Assembly (NCBI GenBank): GCA_015256915.3
Contig: CP076101.2
Span: 605,740-637,739, forward strand
Direction of reading: 5' to 3'
Origin: Candidatus Saccharimonas sp.
GTDB taxonomy: Bacteria > Patescibacteriota > Saccharimonadia > Saccharimonadales > Saccharimonadaceae
Length of the DNA stretch: 32,000 nucleotides
The position numbers were made by a program, and so were the translations under genes. The number at the start of each line of letters is the position of its first letter. Position 1 is the stretch's first letter. Positions 4,880-27,416 of this stretch are shown one piece after another. The notes under the pieces are model-generated. The model worked only from the letters and a program-made list of their open reading frames with translations, ran no database searches and was not told where the DNA came from.

Positions 4880-5995
4880 ATGAGCAATAATTCGAAATAT
4901 TTAATAAGTTTTATAGTACCCGTATTTAATACGGGTACTAATATAGAAAACATTGTTAATTCAATACTTAAAGTAAGTAACACAATGGATAATATATTAG
5001 AAATTATAGTTGTTGATGATGGATCAGATGATCAAGAAACGCTAGATTCTCTAAAAAATATATCTAAGCTTAATGATGTATCAGTAATAAGACAAAAAAA
5101 TTCTGGCCCTAGCGCATCTAGAAATATTGGAATATCTAAGGCATCTGGAGAATGGATTGGATTTTGCGATTCAGACGACATTATAGATTCCGAACATCTT
5201 TTAAACACCGTAAAAACAATAAGAATGAATAATTATAAAAATTCAGATATGCTTGTTTTTGGGTGGAGTATAAGGCATAACCAAGATAATAAAAGTACTT
5301 ATAGGCACATTAATTTAGAAAAACAATCTATAACAGGTGAAAATGATATAGCACAAAAAACATTAAAATCTCTAAGTTTAGATGGACGAATGTATAATCT
5401 GTGGAATAGGCTTTATAGAAAAAATATAATCCGTGATAATAATATTAAATTAGATGAAAACCTTAGATTTGGAGAGGATCTAATATTCAACCTGAATTTC
5501 TTATTAAAATCAAGCAGGATTGACATACTAGATGTAGCGCCTTATTACACATATATTTCCAATAGTGAAACGAGTATAGTAAAAACTACAAAGCTCAACA
5601 CTGAATATAGAATAAAAAATGCAAGAGAGCTAGATAAATTTTCGAAAATAGCAAATCAGCAAGATAATCCCTATGTTCAACTTATTAAAGCTAGGTGGCT
5701 AATATCTTTCATGATGTCATCTATTCAATATTCAACCAAGCAAGAAGGATCTAAAAAATCTTTAAATAATATAAAGCATATTATTGACAATAGGATACTG
5801 GCACCAAAATTTATTAAAAAAACGCCAGAGATAGGGATAATAGAATATATATTTCTACTTATAGCAACCTTAATACTAAAAAATGCTCTATTAGCATTTA
5901 TTTTGGCTAATATATTGTTGTTTATTAAAAATATTAAATCTCAAAAAAATATAAAATTAGATGAAAAATATTACACACTGAAAAAAATAATCTAA
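4880..5995 (+). CDS. family 2 glycosyltransferase with C-terminal membrane anchor
   Basis: ISFIVPVFNTG...VVDDGSDD...GFCDSDD are GT2 motifs. The C-terminus is hydrophobic (IIEYIFLLIATLILKNALLAFILANILLF). Confidence 0.8.
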   Translation: MSNNSKYLISFIVPVFNTGTNIENIVNSILKVSNTMDNILEIIVVDDGSDDQETLDSLKNISKLNDVSVIRQKNSGPSASRNIGISKASGEWIGFCDSDDIIDSEHLLNTVKTIRMNNYKNSDMLVFGWSIRHNQDNKSTYRHINLEKQSITGENDIAQKTLKSLSLDGRMYNLWNRLYRKNIIRDNNIKLDENLRFGEDLIFNLNFLLKSSRIDILDVAPYYTYISNSETSIVKTTKLNTEYRIKNARELDKFSKIANQQDNPYVQLIKARWLISFMMSSIQYSTKQEGSKKSLNNIKHIIDNRILAPKFIKKTPEIGIIEYIFLLIATLILKNALLAFILANILLFIKNIKSQKNIKLDEKYYTLKKII

Positions 5996-6016
5996 AAAAT
6001 TAATATTTTTTATTTT

Positions 6017-6048
6017 AATACCACTGTTTAAACTCAAGTAGTGGTATT
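6017..6048. terminator. bidirectional hairpin between convergent genes
   Basis: AATACCACT (6017-6025) pairs with AGTGGTATT (6040-6048) around a 14-nt loop. Flanks are A/T runs. Confidence 0.5.
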
Positions 6049-6068
6049 ATTTAAAAAACTATCTATTC

Positions 6069-7232
6069 CTATTCAATAATATTCTTTTTTACTAAACCAT
6101 AGTCGTTATCGGTTTTAGTAGTTAAATATTTAAATCTAAAATCACCGCCATCAAAAGTATTAGCAATAGCCTTAGAATGATCTTTATTTTTTTCATATAG
6201 AACTGCAACAACTCTAAAGTCGGTAGAATTAAAATTATCTAAAGAAATCCTAATATTAAATACTGAATTATCTGTAGAAACCTTTACATGACCGCTGTCA
6301 TACACTCTACCGCCTCTACCTTCATCTTGAAGAGTATAAGCAATATATAACTCAGCATCACCGTTATACGAATATTCTATATCAGCCTCAAAATATTCAC
6401 CATGATGAATAATTGGTTTATTCCCAACAATTTTAATTGAGGAAGAATTATCATCAGTATTAGAATTATAAATATTGCGAGAATTAAGCGTGTCTAGGTT
6501 GGAAGCTATATATTTCTCAGCAACTTTATCAACATCACCAGATTCACTTATCATACCATCTGCAATAAAAATAGCATTATTACAATATTTTTTAACATCC
6601 GCCATTGAATGTGTAACCAAGATAACAGTTTTAGTTTTATCTTTCTTAATATTTTCGAAAAAATCATTACATTTACGTTGAAAGGCTTCATCACCAACTG
6701 CTAAAACTTCATCCAACACTAAAATATCACCTTGAGCTTTAATAGCGATCGAAAAAGCCAAACGAACTTGCATTCCGCTAGAATAATTCTTTAATTTCTG
6801 GTCCATAAATTCTTCAAGCTCAGCAAATTCAACAATTTCATTATACATTGCAGAAATTTCCTCTTTCGAAAAACCTAAAAGGGCACCATTTAAATAAATG
6901 TTTTCACGGCCAGTAAGTTCTGGATTAAACCCAACACCAAGCTCAATAAATGGAACCAAAGTTCCGTCAACTTTTACTGTACCACTCTCTGGCGTATAAA
7001 TTTGCGAAATAATTTTAAGTAATGTAGATTTTCCTGAACCATTTCGACCAACAATACCATAAAAATCACCTTTTTTAACCTTGAATGAAATATCCTTAAG
7101 AACTTTTTGTTCTTTATAGCCTTTAATTCCCTTCGTCCAGTTTACAAAAGCCTGTTTAATACCACTCGCCTGCTCTGTTGGTAAACGAAAACTTTTCGAA
7201 ACATTTTTTACTTCTAAAGCGTATTTTCCCAT
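6069..7232 (-). CDS. polysaccharide/teichoic-acid ABC exporter ATP-binding protein (Wzt/TagH type) with about 140-aa C-terminal extra domain
   Basis: Walker A is GRNGSGKST, the signature is YSSGMQVRLAF and Walker B is ILVLDEVLAVGD. A beta-rich tail (aa about 250-387) sits where Wzt glycan-cap-binding domains occur. Confidence 0.9.
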   Translation of the reverse strand: MGKYALEVKNVSKSFRLPTEQASGIKQAFVNWTKGIKGYKEQKVLKDISFKVKKGDFYGIVGRNGSGKSTLLKIISQIYTPESGTVKVDGTLVPFIELGVGFNPELTGRENIYLNGALLGFSKEEISAMYNEIVEFAELEEFMDQKLKNYSSGMQVRLAFSIAIKAQGDILVLDEVLAVGDEAFQRKCNDFFENIKKDKTKTVILVTHSMADVKKYCNNAIFIADGMISESGDVDKVAEKYIASNLDTLNSRNIYNSNTDDNSSSIKIVGNKPIIHHGEYFEADIEYSYNGDAELYIAYTLQDEGRGGRVYDSGHVKVSTDNSVFNIRISLDNFNSTDFRVVAVLYEKNKDHSKAIANTFDGGDFRFKYLTTKTDNDYGLVKKNIIE

Positions 7233-8056
7233 TACATAATCTCCGCAAATTTTTTCGAATTTTTATTAAAATACCATAGACCAAAAGCTACTAATAAAGT
7301 TGTGACCAAAATTGGAATTAACACAAACCAGTAATTTTCGAAAAGTGTCCAGAAAGTTGGTGTTTCATGAGCGATCAAATTGTGGCGAATATCTTGAATC
7401 GCAAGCGCAATTGGGTTAAGCATCATAATTTTCGCAATCGAAAATCCAAAAATTGAAACTTTTGTAACCATTGAAATTGGATACATAATTGGCATTGAAT
7501 AGACTAAAATCTGCATAAATACTTCCCAGATATGCGAAATATCACGGAATTTAACATAAAGAGTTGATAAAATTAACGCTAAACCAAAAGCTGTAGCAAA
7601 AAGAAGTATAATGTTAAATGGCAAAATTAAAACAGACCATTGGAATTTTACACCAGCAAAAATTGCAAAAGCTAAAACAACCAAAAGATTAATTGAAAGT
7701 GAAATTAAAGCACTCACCATTGAAGAAATAATCACGATATATTTTGGAAAATTAATTTTTCGCATCAAATCACCACGAGCAACAATTGAATTCATCCCCA
7801 AAGTAACTGCTTCGGTAAAAAATCCCCAAAGAGAGAGACCAAGGAGTAGAGTTATTGCATAGTTTGGAATTGAAGAATCAGTAATTCGCAAGAATTTTAC
7901 AAATATAAAATACATCACCACAAAAATCATAAGTGGCTTAAGAACTGACCATAAAATTCCCAAAGCTGAGCCTTGATACCTTAACTTAAAATCTGTTTTA
8001 ACGAGTTCTGCAAGCAGAACCCGATTCCTCTTTTCAAAAAATCCTATTTTAATCAT
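7232..8056 (-). CDS. ABC-2 type polysaccharide exporter permease (Wzm/TagG type)
   Basis: 274 aa with 6 TM segments. The N-terminal LVKTDFKLRYQGSALGILWSVLKPL block is typical of ABC-2 permeases. Its stop overlaps the ATPase start as TAATG at 7232. Confidence 0.85.
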   Translation of the reverse strand: MIKIGFFEKRNRVLLAELVKTDFKLRYQGSALGILWSVLKPLMIFVVMYFIFVKFLRITDSSIPNYAITLLLGLSLWGFFTEAVTLGMNSIVARGDLMRKINFPKYIVIISSMVSALISLSINLLVVLAFAIFAGVKFQWSVLILPFNIILLFATAFGLALILSTLYVKFRDISHIWEVFMQILVYSMPIMYPISMVTKVSIFGFSIAKIMMLNPIALAIQDIRHNLIAHETPTFWTLFENYWFVLIPILVTTLLVAFGLWYFNKNSKKFAEIM

Positions 8057-8066
8057 TATGCTTTTA

Positions 8067-8075
8067 ATTATATCA
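8067..8075 (-). promoter_or_regulatory. extended -10 promoter (TGATATAAT), near-leaderless, for the wzm/wzt-like operon
   Basis: Minus strand reads TGATATAAT, then 10 nt, then the ATG at 8056. No SD is present. Confidence 0.45.
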
Positions 8076-8150
8076 TATATCGCCTAACACTCCAACACTA
8101 AACTATTTTAACATCTGAAAATAGCTAGCTTTCTAGATTATTTTTAATAA

Positions 8151-8178
8151 GTTAAAACAGCATCTCTGCTGTTTTAAC
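8151..8178 (-). terminator. hairpin downstream of the LGFP gene
   Basis: GTTAAAACAGC pairs with GCTGTTTTAAC (11-bp perfect stem, 6-nt loop), 3 nt after the stop at 8181. Confidence 0.5.
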
Positions 8179-8180
8179 TG

Positions 8181-9908
8181 CTATTTATCTATTTTTAATA
8201 TATATTTATTACCAACACCCGTAATTAATCCTCTTTCGAAATTCTGAGTCCATTTACCATCATTCCATGCTTCATTCTTTAACGGTAAGCCGAGTTTATC
8301 TTTTTGCGTATCATTTAATGAATTATAGAATTTAAATACATCACCCTGAATTTCCCAATATCCTAAATTATCGTTTCCTATGATATCACCTTTCTCGTAG
8401 TGTTGTATCTTATAACCTTTTTCTTCAATAACATCACTAGTAGGAAATCCTAAAGCACCTTTTTCATTACCAATCTTATTCCAGCGTTCGCGTATTTTAC
8501 CATAACTTTCATGATATCCAGATTTTGGACTACCTATAATAAAACCATTCTGATATTTCTGGAACCATCCACCTTGAATAGTTGAAAATTCTTGTGTTAT
8601 AGGTAATCCCATCTTACCATGTTCATACCCTAATTGAGCATACTTATCTCTAATTAAACCAATACTTTCCCAATATCCAGTACTATCACTTCCAATTATG
8701 AAACCATTCTGATATTTTTGCGCACGACCATTATTGATAGTGTTAAAATATCCAGATAGTGGTAATCCCATCTTACCATGTTCATACCCTAGCTCAGAAT
8801 ATCTTTGTCTAATTTTACCATAGTTTTCCCAATATCCAGTACTATCACTTCCAACTATGAAACCATTTTTAAACCTTTGGAATATTGATTTATCGGTCTT
8901 GAAAAATTCAGAATCTACGTCACCAAGATATCCTTTTTCACCACCTAGCTCAATGTATCTTTCATATATTCCACTGTGTATTCTTTTACTTTCAAGAGTA
9001 GAGCCAAATAGCCGGTTAAAGAACATAAAGAAATTACGATTTCCATAAGCTCCACAATGTGAAGTTCCCGGATAATTTGCTAGTGCTGAATCATTCGGAA
9101 CATACGGTGTATAAATATATAAACTTAAAGTTGCAACATTCTCAATATTAACACGTTTTGTACCGCAAGCTGGATTTGGTGAATATTGAATATTATTCCA
9201 TCCAAGCTTTAGCGAATAGCCACCATCTTTATGATGGTCTTTATAATATTTGAGCTGCCAAGCTGCCAAAGTCATTTGTTTATAAAAACCAGCTTTCGAA
9301 TCCGCACAAGCAGCAGAAAATCCAGGTCCAGAATCTGGGCAAGCATAGCCCATTGCATATTTATATTGAGTTTTTACTGGCCAATTATCATCTAGTAAAT
9401 TGAGAGATTCTTTCTTCAGTAAAACCAACAAAACTTGCGGGTTAATTCCATATTTCTGAGCCGCATCATAAATAATCTGTGCCGCCGAAATTCCACCTTC
9501 GAAAGATCCGCCACCTTTTTCGAAAGAAGTTTCGCCAGTATTTGGGTTTTCGTGATAATTATTTATACATACATATGGAGGTTTATGCCAATAATTTGAA
9601 TTTTGTGCAGCAGCAAATTGAGCAGCGGTTCTACCATCATTTTTCCCAGAAGGTCCAGTACCCCAGGTATCACAACTACCAATTTGCTTATTTAAAAAGC
9701 TTTGGATTTGCTGCACGTTCATTGCATCTTTATTATAAAAAATACTGTCGTCAATAATTCGTCCAGGATTGAAATCGGTTGCTTTAACAGCGTTAGAAAG
9801 ATTTCTAAGTACAGCTAAAGAACTAAAAATAATAACCGCCACAACTGGCGCACCAATTAAAATTGATTTTTTAAATTTTCTACTTCTCGATTGTAAAACT
9901 TTGAGCAT
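8181..9908 (-). CDS. secreted or membrane-anchored cell-wall protein: Cys-rich N-terminal domain + five LGFP repeats
   Basis: There is an N-terminal TM/signal segment (ILIGAPVVAVIIFSSLAVL). A conserved domain contains AAQIIYDAAQKYGINPQVLLVLLKKES. The C-terminus has 53-aa repeats with the LG(Y/F/L)P...NG.I(I/V)G...G motif characteristic of LGFP repeats (PF08310). Confidence 0.75.
   Translation of the reverse strand: MLKVLQSRSRKFKKSILIGAPVVAVIIFSSLAVLRNLSNAVKATDFNPGRIIDDSIFYNKDAMNVQQIQSFLNKQIGSCDTWGTGPSGKNDGRTAAQFAAAQNSNYWHKPPYVCINNYHENPNTGETSFEKGGGSFEGGISAAQIIYDAAQKYGINPQVLLVLLKKESLNLLDDNWPVKTQYKYAMGYACPDSGPGFSAACADSKAGFYKQMTLAAWQLKYYKDHHKDGGYSLKLGWNNIQYSPNPACGTKRVNIENVATLSLYIYTPYVPNDSALANYPGTSHCGAYGNRNFFMFFNRLFGSTLESKRIHSGIYERYIELGGEKGYLGDVDSEFFKTDKSIFQRFKNGFIVGSDSTGYWENYGKIRQRYSELGYEHGKMGLPLSGYFNTINNGRAQKYQNGFIIGSDSTGYWESIGLIRDKYAQLGYEHGKMGLPITQEFSTIQGGWFQKYQNGFIIGSPKSGYHESYGKIRERWNKIGNEKGALGFPTSDVIEEKGYKIQHYEKGDIIGNDNLGYWEIQGDVFKFYNSLNDTQKDKLGLPLKNEAWNDGKWTQNFERGLITGVGNKYILKIDK
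8184..8969 (-). repeat. five tandem intragenic LGFP repeats, period 159 bp
   Basis: Repeats 2 and 3 share identical 31-mers at 8602-8632 and 8761-8791. They also share 29 identical nt at 8667-8695 and 8826-8854. Confidence 0.75.
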
Positions 9909-10482
9909 CCGACCTTCCTTCTTGCTTTTGTTTTGAATTTTTATAAGTTGTTATTGCTGTCCATTTTCCAGTTTTAAATTCACTATCACTAATTTTTTTC
10001 GAAACTGCCTTACAATATTTATTATTTGGGCTCTCTAAAATTTCAGTTGAAAGTTCAATTTTAGTTCCATCAGAATGCGTTAGAGTATATGAACATTTAC
10101 CATTCCCATCATCATAAAGGAGCCCTGAAATCTGCCCGGCCACACGAACTGTACCATCTTCAACTTGCACGGTTGTATAAGTTGGAAAATTTGTATAACC
10201 CGAGGATTCAACAGTTCCTTCAGCACGATCAGTATTATTATTTTTAGTTTTCGAATTAATGATTTCCTTTGCAGCTTCTTGCTTTTTAGTTTCTTCAGGT
10301 TTTTTCGAATCTTCTTTTTTCTCTTCAACTTTTGAAGTATTTTCTTCTTTTTTCTCATTATTTTTTTGAGAATTTGAATTTACCCACCAGAAAATTCCAC
10401 CAGCACCAGCGACCAGCAAAATTACAAATGCAGCAAAAATAATAGTTTTAGTTTTTTTAGTATTTTGTGTGTTTATTTTCAT
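9880..10482 (-). CDS. membrane-anchored hypothetical protein (K/E-rich linker + beta-rich C-terminal domain with two Cys)
   Basis: 200-aa ORF with an N-terminal TM (IIFAAFVILLVAGAGGIFWWV). A GGAG SD lies 7 nt upstream of the ATG. It overlaps the LGFP gene by 29 nt. No family recognised. Confidence 0.6.
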   Translation of the reverse strand: MKINTQNTKKTKTIIFAAFVILLVAGAGGIFWWVNSNSQKNNEKKEENTSKVEEKKEDSKKPEETKKQEAAKEIINSKTKNNNTDRAEGTVESSGYTNFPTYTTVQVEDGTVRVAGQISGLLYDDGNGKCSYTLTHSDGTKIELSTEILESPNNKYCKAVSKKISDSEFKTGKWTAITTYKNSKQKQEGRSDAQSFTIEK

Positions 10483-11542: not shown

Positions 11543-11942
11543 CCAAGAATTTTGGTTTGCAGCAATTGGCGGGTTGAATACAATTCTAGATTTTGTAATT
11601 CTTTTTGGACTAACTTCTCTTGGAATTAGCTCTTTAACTGCAAACATTTTCTCAACTGGGATTACTTTTATAAATAGCTTTAGTTTAAATAAGAAAATCA
11701 CTTTTAAATCAGTTTCAAAAAGCAAAAAAAAACTTGTTCGAGAAATGGCACTTTTTATTATTGTAACACTTTTTGGACTTTGGGTTATTCAAGGTGTGAT
11801 AATTTTTCTAACTTTACCATTTTTCGAAAGTATTTTAAAAAATCCAAAAATATCGCTTTTAATTTCAAAACTTATCGCTACTGTCTTCAGCTTAATCTGG
11901 AACTTTATCCTTTACAAAAAAGTTGTCTTCAATAAAGATTAA
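11511..11942 (+). CDS. GtrA-family small membrane protein (putative lipid-linked sugar flippase)
   Basis: 143 aa with 4 TM segments. The FWFAAIGGLNTILDFVILFGL start is typical of GtrA (PF04138). It overlaps the gtrB-like gene by 32 nt. Confidence 0.8.
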   Translation: MKNLLKKLKNSQEFWFAAIGGLNTILDFVILFGLTSLGISSLTANIFSTGITFINSFSLNKKITFKSVSKSKKKLVREMALFIIVTLFGLWVIQGVIIFLTLPFFESILKNPKISLLISKLIATVFSLIWNFILYKKVVFNKD

Positions 11943-13470: not shown

Positions 13471-13824
13471 CTACTTATTACAATAAAAATCAGCCTCTTT
13501 AAAGATATCAATTATAGCTTCTTTAAGTTCTTCATGCGGAATATCTTTTATGCTTTTATGAAAAATCATCACTACAACATCAAAAGTGCCATCAATTTTT
13601 GGTAGTTCATGGCGAATAATTTCATAAACTCGCCGGCGAATTCGATTTCGGCCAACCGCGCTCTTTAAAACCTTTTTCGAAACCACAACCGCAAAACGTG
13701 AATCTTTACGGCGTGGATTTTGTGCAAATTTCACGGTAATTTTTTGTGTACGAACTGAAGTTCCGTTTGAATAAACATAACGCAAGCTACCATGACCATG
13801 AAATCTATTTTTATAAGCTAACAT
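13471..13824 (-). CDS. rnpA: ribonuclease P protein component
   Basis: 117 aa and basic. The RFAVVVSKKVLKSAVGRNRIRRRVYE block is the RNR motif. It lies immediately upstream of yidC. Confidence 0.85.
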   Translation of the reverse strand: MLAYKNRFHGHGSLRYVYSNGTSVRTQKITVKFAQNPRRKDSRFAVVVSKKVLKSAVGRNRIRRRVYEIIRHELPKIDGTFDVVVMIFHKSIKDIPHEELKEAIIDIFKEADFYCNK

Positions 13825-13834
13825 AACTGTTTAT

Positions 13835-13863
13835 ATTTTAGCATTTTTTAAGTAATTTAGCAA
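13835..13863 (-). promoter_or_regulatory. sigma70-type promoter, near-leaderless, for rnpA-yidC-jag
   Basis: Minus strand reads TTGCTA-17 nt-TAAAAT (preceded by TGC). The ATG at 13824 is 10 nt downstream. Confidence 0.5.
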
Positions 13864-13866
13864 ATT

Positions 13867-13893
13867 AAAACGAGCTCACAGTAAGCCCGTTTT
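13867..13893 (-). terminator. hairpin after the DUF4352-like gene
   Basis: AAAACGAGCT pairs with AGCCCGTTTT (10-bp stem, one mismatch, 7-nt loop), 10 nt after the stop at 13903. The T-run is weak. Confidence 0.4.
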
Positions 13894-13902
13894 AAAAATT
13901 TA

Positions 13903-14527
13903 TTATAGATTAACAATAACTTTTTTATTAGACCAAAATGATGGTTGATAATGGAGTTTTAGTGAAGAACCAGCAGGGACTTCAAAAATTATCGAACCGC
14001 TCTTTTTACCACCTTTTACTAAATCACCAGAACCAAGACTATCTGGTAGGCTATAAGTTTGTCCATCAGCGCTTTCAGCGGCTCCGTTAGAATCTTCAGC
14101 CTTAAATTCAAAAAACATTATAGTTCATCTCTGTTTCAGATTTATTTTCAATCTTTACTGAAACTTTTACATATTCTTTGCCATCTTTTGGTTTTAAATA
14201 AGCATTTCCAGAATTCCAGTTTCGCTCAACCTTTTCAACGGTCAATTCTTTTCCATCGAACGCAATTATATCACCAACATTGAATTCAGTTTTTTCTTCT
14301 TTTTTAGACTCACCTTTTTGAGTTTGAGATGATCCGTTTGATCCAGAATTTTTATTTTCACCAACTTTTTCAGGCTGTTTATATTGGCTACCAATAGCAA
14401 TAATTACAACTATAACAATCCAAAACCAAGCTTTTTTATAGAATGGCTTCTCAGATTTAGTTTTCGAAGATATTCTATTTAGCTGCTTGCTATCATTAGA
14501 TTCTACAGTTGATTTTTCTTCTTTCAT
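13903..14527 (-). pseudogene. membrane-anchored DUF4352-like (Ig-like) protein, interrupted by a frameshift in a T6 run
   Basis: ORFs 14108..14527 and 13903..14118 together give one domain: ...VKVSVKIENKSETEMNYNVF | EFKAEDSNG...GGKKSGSIIFEVPAGSSLKLHYQPSFWSNKKVIVNL. Removing one T from the T6 run (plus-strand A6 at 14110-14115) fuses them in frame. Confidence 0.65.
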
Positions 14528-14565
14528 TATAACTCCCTTTATAAAATATTAATTATTACATAATC

Positions 14566-14596
14566 ATTTTACCCCCCCCCCGATATATTTTGTCAA
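14566..14596 (-). promoter_or_regulatory. sigma70-type promoter whose 19-nt spacer contains the G10 tract
   Basis: Minus strand reads TTGACA (14596-14591), then aaatatatc + G10, then TAAAAT (14571-14566). A GGGAG SD lies 5 nt before the ATG at 14527. Confidence 0.55.
14572..14581. repeat. C10 (G10 on the coding strand) homopolymer
   Basis: Counted directly: c at 14572-14581. It is by far the longest G/C run in the window. Confidence 0.95.
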
Positions 14597-14600
14597 GTAT

Positions 14601-14634
14601 AAAAATAAAAAAAGAGGCTTTCAAAAACCTCTTT
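14601..14634 (-). terminator. rho-independent terminator after lepA
   Basis: Minus strand reads AAGAGG-10 nt loop-CCTCTT followed by TTTTTTATTTTT, starting at the lepA stop codon. Confidence 0.6.
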
Positions 14635-15860
14635 TAATCTCGTTTTAGCATTACAGTAAAAGCTTCGCTCGGAATTTCAACATTTCCAAATTTCTTCATT
14701 CGCTTTTTACCACGTTTTTGTTTAGCAAGCAGTTTTTTCTTTCGAGAAACATCGCCACCGTAAAGATAACCAGTCACGTCTTTTCGATAAGCCGAAATAT
14801 TCTCGCGCGCGATAAACTTTCCGCCAATCGCCGCTTGAATCGCCACCTGGAAATTCTGTCGCGGAATAACTTCTTTCAATTTTGCAGTAATTTCACGACC
14901 CATTCGTACACTTTCCGAACGGTGACACATCACCGAAAGCGCATCAACCATTTCGCCCGCAACATAAAAATCCACACGCACCAAATCTTCTACCAAATAA
15001 TCCCAAAGTTCATAATTAAATGAACCATAACCAGATGTAACGCTTTTCAATTGATCATAAAAATCGGTCAAAAGGTTAGCGAGTGGTGCTTCGAAAGAGA
15101 CCAAAACACGCTCATCAATATAGCTTAAATTCTTTTGCAAACCGCGTTTCGAAACAATCAGCTGGATTACAGCACCAACATAATCTTTTGGTACCACAAT
15201 TTCACCTTTAATCCACGGCTCACGAATTTCAGAAATTTTTGTTTGATCAGGTAAATCAGCAGCACTTTTAATATCTAATTCTTCACCTGTTGTCAAAATA
15301 ACATGATAGTCGGTTGAAGGATTAGTTACCACCAAATCTAAGTCGTATTCACGTTCCAAACGCTCGCGAACAATATCCATATGAAGAAGACCAAGAAAGC
15401 CAATTCGCACGCCAAAACCTAAAACTGGTGAATTCTCTGGTTCGAATTGAAGTGCAGAATCACTTAAACTTAATTTTTCAACCGCATCTTTCAAATCTTG
15501 ATAATCTTCATTTGAAACCGGGAAAAACCCAGCATAAACGAACGGCTGAACGTTTTGATAACCAGGTAGAGGCTCACTAGCAGGATTTTTCGAAAGAGTT
15601 ACAGTATCACCAACTTTTGCCTCACGGGTAGTTTTTAAGTTAGTCACAATGTATCCAATCTCGCCCGCACTCATTTTATCGTATGGTGTCATTTTTGGCT
15701 GAAGCTTACCAATTTCTAGCGCCAAACCTTTTGAATCTGTCGCCATCATTTTAATTTCTTCACCTTTTTTTAGCTCACCCGAAAAAATACGCACGTATAA
15801 AATTACGCCACGGTAATCATCATAATAACTATCAAAAATTAAAGCTTTTAGTGGTTTCAT
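14634..15860 (-). CDS. lepA: elongation factor 4 (LepA), C-terminal fragment (domains II to C-terminal domain)
   Basis: It starts [19 protein letters not shown], which aligns to the PLKALIFDS block just after the G domain of LepA. The C-terminal GGDVSRKKKLLAKQKRGKKRMK is LepA-specific. Confidence 0.85.
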   Translation of the reverse strand: MKPLKALIFDSYYDDYRGVILYVRIFSGELKKGEEIKMMATDSKGLALEIGKLQPKMTPYDKMSAGEIGYIVTNLKTTREAKVGDTVTLSKNPASEPLPGYQNVQPFVYAGFFPVSNEDYQDLKDAVEKLSLSDSALQFEPENSPVLGFGVRIGFLGLLHMDIVRERLEREYDLDLVVTNPSTDYHVILTTGEELDIKSAADLPDQTKISEIREPWIKGEIVVPKDYVGAVIQLIVSKRGLQKNLSYIDERVLVSFEAPLANLLTDFYDQLKSVTSGYGSFNYELWDYLVEDLVRVDFYVAGEMVDALSVMCHRSESVRMGREITAKLKEVIPRQNFQVAIQAAIGGKFIARENISAYRKDVTGYLYGGDVSRKKKLLAKQKRGKKRMKKFGNVEIPSEAFTVMLKRD

Positions 15861-16411
15861 TAAATCTCCTTTGGTGCAGGAATTTTCTCAATCACCGCAT
15901 TTAAAACTTCTTCAACACCCATTCCTGTTTTGGCTGAAATATGTAAAATTTCACTTTCATCACAACCTAAAAGATTAATAACTTCTTTCGAAACTCGCGG
16001 AATATCTGCTGCGGGTAAATCAATTTTATTCAAAACTGGAATAATTTTTAAATCTGCCGCCATTGCAAGATAAACATTAGCCAAAGTTTGTGCTTGAATC
16101 CCTTGCGAAGCATCAACCACTAAAATTGCACCTTCACAAGCTTGAAGAGAACGCGAAACTTCATAGGAAAAGTCAACATGTCCAGGAGTGTCAATTAAAT
16201 TCAATTCTATCCCCTGCCAATTCATTGTTACAGGCGCAAGTTTAATTGTAATTCCTTTTTCGCGCTCCAAATCCATCGAGTCTAAAAGCTGCGACTTCAT
16301 ATCACGTTTTTGAACAGTACCGGTAATTTCCATCATTCGGTCAGCTAAGGTCGACTTACCGTGATCAATATGAGCAATAATACAAAAATTTCTAATCTTT
16401 TCTAAATTCAT
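15860..16411 (-). CDS. lepA: elongation factor 4 (LepA), N-terminal GTPase-domain fragment
   Basis: [20 protein letters not shown] (G1), DTPGHVDF (G3), NKID (G4) and SAK (G5) are present. It ends ...[10 protein letters not shown], exactly at the domain I/II boundary. Confidence 0.85.
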
Positions 16412-24875: not shown

Positions 24876-25067
24876 TTAGAAAACTGTTGCATCCTTTTGT
24901 TTCGCCAACTTCATGCGATCCTCTTTTATAATTTCAGTTTGAATTACAGCTAATTTTTTATTATTAATAGGACTAAATATTTGGTCTAATTCTATAATAT
25001 TAGAATAAACCTTATTGCTATCAGCATCTACAGCAATTGGAACTTCAATCATTTTCTTCACCCCCAT
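24876..25067 (-). CDS. small hypothetical protein (58-63 aa)
   Basis: The ORF has its own promoter (25107-25135) and terminator. An alternative ATG at codon 6 is preceded by GGGGGTGA. No family recognised. Confidence 0.4.
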   Translation of the reverse strand: MGVKKMIEVPIAVDADSNKVYSNIIELDQIFSPINNKKLAVIQTEIIKEDRMKLAKQKDATVF

Positions 25068-27387: not shown

Positions 27388-27416
27388 TTGACAAAAATAG
27401 AAAAATTTGTTATAGT
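27388..27416 (+). promoter_or_regulatory. near-consensus sigma70 promoter for the 27472 orphan gene
   Basis: TTGACA-17 nt-TATAGT (preceded by TGT). The leader is about 49 nt, with hairpin TATTCC-5 nt-GGAATA (27426-27442) and an AGGAGG SD (27458-27463) 8 nt before the ATG. Confidence 0.6.

Follow-up and report, generated by a model that had tools for sequence, protein, structure and literature searches.

The poly-G tract that separates the two hexamers of a putative promoter in oral Saccharibacteria is hypermutable in nature, and it probably serves as a simple-sequence-repeat contingency locus, in which slippage within the promoter spacer would vary the transcription of a downstream gene for a membrane-anchored DUF4352 protein. 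Strains that are otherwise nearly identical differ in the length of this tract, and the hexamers on either side of it are retained across divergent lineages. [quoted passage not shown] In such organisms a hypermutable promoter tract would be a cheap, regulator-free source of phenotypic diversity. The tract was noticed in a window of 32 kb, by which we mean the whole stretch of DNA that was analysed, and was then followed through oral metagenomes; the features of the locus are collected in the table.

On the minus strand, the site reads TTGACA, aaatatatc, ten G residues and TAAAAT, as an earlier note on this DNA had described. The predicted spacer (14590-14572) is 19 nt long, and 10 of these are G (C10 on the plus strand). 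After TAAAAT there follow 28 nt, the sequence GGGAG, the pentamer ttata and the ATG at 14527, which places the putative promoter TTGACA-N19-TAAAAT, as recognised at the sequence level, 38 nt 5' of the DUF4352 start codon. The unit is flanked by terminators, and the T-tail of the one that follows lepA ends 13 nt 5' of the promoter site. With a terminator on both sides, the DUF4352 unit is monocistronic and the G-tract promoter is its sole evident promoter. Folding analysis revealed nothing significant in the 5' UTR, an Rfam scan of 13800-14800 returned one sub-threshold chance match and nothing else, and Tandem Repeats Finder detected no further notable repeat array in the whole window.

Features of the DUF4352 locus and its surroundings (window positions)
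Feature	Position	Strand	Remarks
-35 hexamer TTGACA (6/6)	14591..14596	-	same in 49/49 assemblies, divergent lineages included
Non-G spacer part aaatatatc, 9 nt	14582..14590	-	read from the window sequence
Hypermutable poly-G tract, G10 here	14572..14581	-	G5, G6, G8 (interrupted) and G9-G13 over 49 assemblies
-10 hexamer TAAAAT (5/6)	14566..14571	-	conserved in 47/49 assemblies; altered in L021 and L026
Shine-Dalgarno GGGAG	14533..14537	-	5 nt 5' of ATG
lepA intrinsic terminator, hairpin and T-run	14610..14635	-	11-pair stem and T tail; dG -11.2 kcal/mol, z -3.3
Terminator hairpin 3' of DUF4352 gene	13865..13895	-	dG -15.3 kcal/mol, z -5.5; then UUUUAAUUU
DUF4352 gene, 5' part	14108..14527	-	139 aa: N-tail, TM, linker, first domain half; premature TGA
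DUF4352 gene, 3' part	13903..14109	-	-1 frame; ORF of 71 aa; joined to 5' part in other strains
T6 run causing the frameshift	14110..14115	-	T5 in all intact alleles aligning here
lepA C-terminal ORF, 408 aa	14634..15860	-	domains II-V and LepA_C; Pfam GTP_EFTU_D2, EFG_C, LepA_C (identical product)

The tract is without parallel in its surroundings. The earlier note had stated that no other G or C run in the window exceeds 5, and this holds: the longest other C run is 5 (a single case, at 25061) and the longest G run is 4, in DNA with a G+C content of 32.3%. For 32 kb, a model of independent bases predicts about 0.0016 G/C runs with a length of at least 10. Elsewhere in the 125 loci that were fetched, no G/C run of at least 7 was present except for one G7 in an unrelated high-GC genome. 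The part of the genome that was examined, roughly 5%, contains one such tract in all. The accompanying remark that every other readable promoter in the window has a 17-nt spacer gains some support from three well-placed promoter-like sites with spacers of this length, which lie directly 5' of a ribosome-binding site and an ATG (27388-27416 on the plus strand, 20000-19972 and 10529-10501 on the minus strand). Based on these three promoter-like sites, the organism appears to use canonical spacing.

The locus was retrieved from other sources with RnpA, with several DUF4352 alleles, with a gapped DNA pattern (JGI/ENA metagenomes) and with LepA (GTDB genomes). After removal of duplicates, the set consisted of 49 independent human oral metagenome or MAG assemblies of the Saccharibacteria (TM7) oral clade G6 (HMT-870) in which the tract is complete. 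Their origins are mixed and include metaSPAdes-style scaffolds, MEGAHIT k141 contigs, Logan and JGI assemblies, and MAGs. The comparison is one between assemblies, each of which stands for the consensus of a sample, and in some of them an error of one residue may affect the Illumina consensus at G10-13. Eight length classes occur among the 49: G10 is the mode (19 assemblies), followed by G11 (13), G12 (7), G9 (5) and G13 (2), with single assemblies at G5 (L033, in which two extra A residues bring the spacer to 16 nt), at G6 (L018) and at an interrupted G8 (L021). The resulting spacers range from 15 to 22 nt, with a mode of 19-20, and the sequences flanking the tract are identical in 37 of the 49. 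Slippage should be frequent in G/C tracts of about 8 or more, a length exceeded by the window (G10) and by 46 of the 49 assemblies (G9-G13). Invariance of the tract across strains, which had been set beforehand as an outcome that would speak against a switch, is ruled out by the eight classes.

A measure of this instability comes from the closest relatives. The seven closest strain pairs are separated by 2-9 SNPs and 0-2 other gap columns over an 8-kb alignment, and the tract differs in length in all seven (for example, G9 in L008 versus G11 in L110 with 2 SNPs, and G12 in L003 versus G10 in L007 with 4 SNPs). Differences within such near-identical pairs provide a rough lower bound on the mutation rate of the tract, which would be comparable to the summed substitution rate of several kb, or roughly 1,000-fold or more per site. 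Control homopolymers in the same sequences are stable. Only 4 of the 89 that could be scored in at least 8 assemblies vary, along lineages or in single assemblies, and all 15 of the A7 or T7 runs that could be assessed, the terminator tail aside, are invariant. The locus thus presents what a contingency promoter is expected to present, namely closely related strains with different repeat lengths against a background of stable controls. Two other candidates for hypermutability were rejected. The A9 run in gtrA (11724-11732) has a length of 9 in all four assemblies with matching flanks, and the terminator T-run at 14607 has 6 or 7 residues but follows lineage, together with a neighbouring C insertion.

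The product of the downstream gene was also identified correctly in the first reading, as a membrane-anchored DUF4352-like protein. In other strains the intact protein has 207 residues, made up of a basic N-terminal tail of 32 residues, one TM helix, a low-complexity linker and the DUF4352 domain, which matches Pfam PF11611 over residues 82-202 with 84.4 bits (E 1e-23; gathering cut-off 25.9). No other Pfam family matches significantly, although DUF5067 gives a sub-threshold match over the same region; the solved YjhA structure 3CFU is matched weakly. According to the positive-inside rule, the domain would face outward. A phage family, phrog_806, matches the protein essentially from end to end (E 1e-30, residues 29-207), and Sie-like families match weakly and mainly in the TM and linker region (phrog_8545, E 8.6e-6; phrog_4980, E 1.6e-5); searches of the protein with PADLOC and NCBIfam gave 0 matches. 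The gene is part of the core chromosome, where lepA and rnpA flank it and the surroundings are not those of a prophage, and all homologues that could be retrieved are at least 89% identical.

In the window itself the gene is broken by the insertion of one T, a frameshift that the earlier note had overlooked, and the switch would therefore be moot for this particular strain. Read on the plus strand, the run at the frameshift site has 5 A residues in 17 assemblies, and 6 in the duplicate L001 as in the window. Independent inactivations have occurred in three lineages: the frameshift shared by the window and L001, a change of Glu9 to a stop codon in L012, and a frameshift in L018, which carries the G6 tract. 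Judged from the alleles, these repeated knock-outs appear to show a dispensable gene under fluctuating selection. A TM-anchored DUF4352 protein with knock-outs in three lineages has the features of a contingency target, that is, of a dispensable gene acting at the surface or in interactions with host or phage. There is no link between tract length and the integrity of the reading frame, as broken ORFs are found at G6, G10 and G11.

The intact alleles are nonetheless constrained. In a set of 33 clean alleles (one insertion-bearing allele, which inflated the estimate to 0.42, was left out), pN/pS is 0.16 for the DUF4352 protein overall and 0.078 within the domain, compared to 0.042 for rnpA and 0.021 for the C-terminal part of lepA. 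The protein is thus functional, but it changes more quickly than the neighbouring products, above all in its tail, TM helix and linker. The purifying selection on the domain argues that the gene has a function and must be expressed with sufficient frequency. The linker is also variable in size, with a 12-codon duplication in the L015 allele that yields a protein of 219 aa (...QNSESKKEEKT QNSQSKKEEKT...).

The architecture of the promoter site has been retained where the sequence around it has changed. In a second lineage, with a DUF4352 protein that is about 90% identical, the non-G part of the spacer reads aaatggtct, and yet TTGACA, the 9-nt length, a G10-13 tract and TAAAAT are all kept. Other variants of the non-G part (aagtatatc and aaatacatc) likewise have 9 nt. 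Changes in length are restricted to the G run, the exception being L033, in which a G5 tract is accompanied by two extra A residues and the non-G part has 11 nt. An informative case is L025, in which a copper-resistance island follows lepA and the G11 promoter has stayed with the DUF4352 gene at a distance of 3.5 kb from lepA. The island (L025:5228-8780) is also present in L029 and L031, although L025 alone reaches far enough to show the DUF4352 promoter. It has a higher G+C content, replaces the lepA terminator region, and encodes a CopY/BlaI-like repressor (131 aa), a cupredoxin-like protein (123 aa) and a P-type ATPase (747 aa).

These patterns bear on the alternative that the tract is a neutral hotspot with no regulatory effect, with transcription directed by another element such as a downstream -10-like sequence that is independent of a -35. 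Candidates for such an element exist 5-14 nt past TAAAAT (TGTAAT and AATAAT in the window, and a perfect TATAAT in lineage 2), and the common spacers, at 18-21 nt, are "non-optimal" even though the ORF is under purifying selection. However, a neutral hypermutable tract in DNA of 32% G+C should decay by interruption or loss, and the survival of G9 or longer tracts in nearly all assemblies, including two lineages with a diverged non-G spacer, argues for selective maintenance. Furthermore, the TG of the downstream element has been lost in L025 and in lineage 2, while TTGACA and TAAAAT are conserved in 49 and 47 of the 49 assemblies, respectively. The constant 9-nt length of the non-G part despite its sequence changes, and the lack of a second G/C run above 5 in the 32 kb, also sit poorly with neutrality. 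A neutral hotspot is accordingly unlikely, and the comparison of lineages provides evidence for maintenance of the tract and hexamers by selection.

A different possibility is that the tract does matter for transcription but by some route other than spacing, such as the phasing of a regulator site against the -10 hexamer (as with Bordetella fim), a structure adopted by poly(dG), or mutation of the -10 hexamer itself. The last of these derives from the arrangement at 14566-14581 on the minus strand, where G10 followed by T forms a GnT motif whose T is the first base of TAAAAT. In GnT motifs the rate of T-to-G mutation is reported to rise up to >1000-fold (PMC12344412). The junction between tract and -10 hexamer is indeed altered in L026 (G10-ATAAAT) and L021 (G8-TG-TAAAT), and the observed spacers fall outside the classical optimum. 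These junction variants are nevertheless rare (2 of 49), and both are in short or end-of-contig sequences. No regulator site is evident, the DNA upstream being just the lepA terminator, and a perfect TTGACA flanking the spacer is most simply a -35 element, so that an effect unrelated to spacing is improbable.

That the tract or its length variation was generated by sequencing, assembly or polishing is very improbable: Illumina and nanopore sequencing are prone to errors in long G homopolymers, the tract interrupts some contigs and the published G6 genomes are nanopore-based and later polished (PMC9600527), but the tract recurs in 49 assemblies made by different projects with different assemblers, its lengths run from 5 to 13 and vary inside every project, refetched contigs agree on length (L004/L102, L009/L106, L010/L108 and L020/L023), an independent Logan assembly (L001, run SRR7448307) equals the window over 1.3 kb with both G10 and the frameshift included, and the same 8-kb alignments are essentially free of other indels. 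An assembly artefact, the other outcome that had been set beforehand as telling against a switch, is ruled out by variation from so many sources together with the stable control homopolymers. Three contigs do stop within the G tract (L022 at its 3' end, and L122 and L123 at their 5' ends), which marks it as a recurrent assembly break point in oral metagenomes and may hint, indirectly, at a mixture of lengths within a sample. For genome curation, this means that the tract breaks assemblies and that its length in any reference genome represents one state of a population.

The explanation with most support for this site is slipped-strand mispairing during replication, through which the poly-G tract between TTGACA and TAAAAT would gain or lose G residues at a rate orders of magnitude above that of base substitution. 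Each G gained or lost would shift the spacing of the hexamers and thereby change the fit of a sigma-70-type RNA polymerase to both of them. As a result, a population would always hold cells that differ in transcription of the membrane-anchored, presumably outward-facing DUF4352 protein. The step from spacing to transcription is modelled on porA, fetA, vlp and hif. Output would probably be graded, low at G10-G12 and higher towards G7-G9, rather than strictly ON or OFF. The protein would have its role at the cell surface, where it may exclude phages at a cost, in the manner of Sie or Mpr proteins.

The specific proposal of the earlier note, that G8 is the ON state and G10 the OFF state, is not supported. 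Among the 49 assemblies there is no uninterrupted G7 or G8 allele, and no clean 16-17-nt spacer produced by a G7 or G8 tract. Given the sample, the lack of G8 and G14 may simply reflect the tails of a distribution centred on G10-G11. By the rules established for E. coli promoters, the 18-21-nt spacers of the common alleles should all be weak. The modal spacer of 19-20 nt, taken with the purifying selection on the gene, suggests that expression at the common lengths may be low but not absent. Three arrangements would fit. Cells in the ON state may be a minority, most populations being largely low or OFF; expression at the common lengths may be low enough to be tolerated, stronger expression being disfavoured by selection; or the polymerase or the geometry of poly(dG) may shift the spacing optimum, in which case length might matter less than assumed.

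Spacer tracts with such a role are well known in other bacteria. In Neisseria meningitidis, slippage of a poly-G tract in the porA spacer and of a poly-C tract in the fetA spacer alters transcription of these surface-protein genes, and in Mycoplasma hyorhinis a poly-A tract between the -35 and -10 of the vlp genes controls membrane-anchored surface proteins. The DUF4352 promoter resembles porA and fetA (spacer-tract variation reviewed in PMC5084427 and PMC5320596) in having a G/C homopolymer between the hexamers and length alleles that differ among close isolates. It differs in that the common spacers are 18-21 nt as opposed to 15-17, and in its setting, a CPR Saccharibacterium with a genome of about 0.65 Mb and one such locus so far. 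With vlp it shares a small-genome, host-associated bacterium, a spacer homopolymer and a membrane-anchored product, but vlp is a multigene family with poly-A tracts and size variation of coding repeats, whereas in the present case one gene carries poly-G in an AT-rich genome. At fim2 and fim3 of Bordetella pertussis, too, isolates differ in a poly-C/G tract of the promoter, which is about 10-15 nt long (PMC1891110). The likeness there is in a promoter G/C tract of varying length; the fim tract, however, sets the distance from the BvgA site to the -10, and no activator site is evident here.

A clue to what the protein might do comes from Mpr of Mycobacterium smegmatis, a membrane phage-resistance protein with a C-terminal DUF4352 domain (PMC12596739; PMC9262609; bioRxiv 10.64898/2026.02.27.708680) and the sole characterised DUF4352 protein (PMC12596739; bioRxiv 10.64898/2026.02.27.708680). 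Mpr acts only when over-expressed and is toxic at high levels (PMC12596739; bioRxiv 10.64898/2026.02.27.708680), and resistance arises by promoter mutation (PMC12596739; PMC9262609; bioRxiv 10.64898/2026.02.27.708680). Both are membrane proteins with a DUF4352 domain, and the Mpr phenotype depends on dosage. The differences are that Mpr is up-regulated by an IS insertion and not by a repeat, and that the stretch before the domain of the present protein is short (about 80 residues with the tail, TM helix and low-complexity linker); the protein has no counterpart of the N-terminal metal-dependent exonuclease region of Mpr and is therefore not an Mpr orthologue. The full-length phrog_806 match also relates it to membrane-anchored DUF4352 proteins of phages and prophages, a family with no assigned function, and the weak matches may point to Sie-like proteins, although it is encoded by a core chromosomal gene. 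By these analogies, a costly role in membrane phage exclusion or in attachment is a reasonable lead, and would fit stochastic expression.

The mechanism is well known; what is new is the lineage and the strength of the population-genomic signal. A full-text literature search found no report of phase variation mediated by simple sequence repeats in Saccharibacteria, TM7, CPR or Patescibacteria. In the G6 genome paper (PMC8386444), homopolymers, mismatch repair and phase variation go unmentioned, and these subjects do not come up in the JB001 announcement (PMC8354532) either. A more ambitious reading is possible, although doubtful as a whole: this would be the first recognised CPR contingency locus based on a simple sequence repeat, a poly-G "rheostat" by which an ultrasmall oral episymbiont hedges the expression of a costly, phage-derived, membrane-anchored DUF4352 factor for phage exclusion (Sie/Mpr-like) or host attachment, with 19-20-nt spacers kept because strong expression is harmful. 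The locus points to a membrane DUF4352 gene as being under fluctuating selection in the human mouth. It is easily followed in existing oral metagenomes and metatranscriptomes and could mark within-host dynamics.

Retrieval with LepA from GTDB species genomes assigns the window to the Saccharibacteria, oral clade G6 (HMT-870). The identity of the C-terminal LepA product is 97-100% for many human-oral MAGs, 94% for Candidatus Nanogingivalis gingivitcus TM7_CMJM_G6_1_HOT_870 and about 80% for environmental Saccharibacteria. JB001-JB003 are published complete genomes of G6 from saliva (PMC8354532, PMC8386444, PMC9600527). In the nearest named species, Ca. Nanogingivalis gingivitcus (L034), the gene order is no longer shared and lepA is followed by a YebC-like gene, which precludes comparison of orthologous promoters. 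An apparent lack of GtrA in L113-L115 was dismissed as a difference in gene calling, the DNA being identical to that of L112 and L116.

The lepA gene upstream of the promoter is, in this species, split into two ORFs (window 14634-16411, minus strand), of 183 aa with the GTPase domain and of 408 aa, which the earlier note had likewise overlooked. The second ORF is in the -1 frame, the two halves overlap stop and start as TAATG at a junction at 15858-15875, and AAGGAG lies 6 nt 5' of the second ATG. Of 42 sequences, 41 have an identical junction, CCAAAGGAGATTTAATG, and L027 departs from it by one base. The two halves would by now be coupled in translation. The consensus sequence would also be restored by a -1 slip on CCA_AAG_G. 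In Ca. N. gingivitcus (L034:2832-5227), the halves are separated by an ORF of 206 aa that is T5orf172/MUG113, GIY-YIG-like, and in all of the environmental Saccharibacteria at about 80% identity lepA is unsplit. The split looks like the result of a homing-endonuclease-type insertion that was later lost, to judge from these sequences. One apparent unsplit lepA closer to home, in L028, was left out, since its 5' part comes from a different, higher-GC sequence and the contig is chimeric or recombinant. On the other side of the DUF4352 gene, L002 and L006 (at 5385-10354 of these loci) carry a type I restriction-modification system between rnpA and yidC, consisting of HsdR (1018 aa), HsdM (534 aa) and HsdS.
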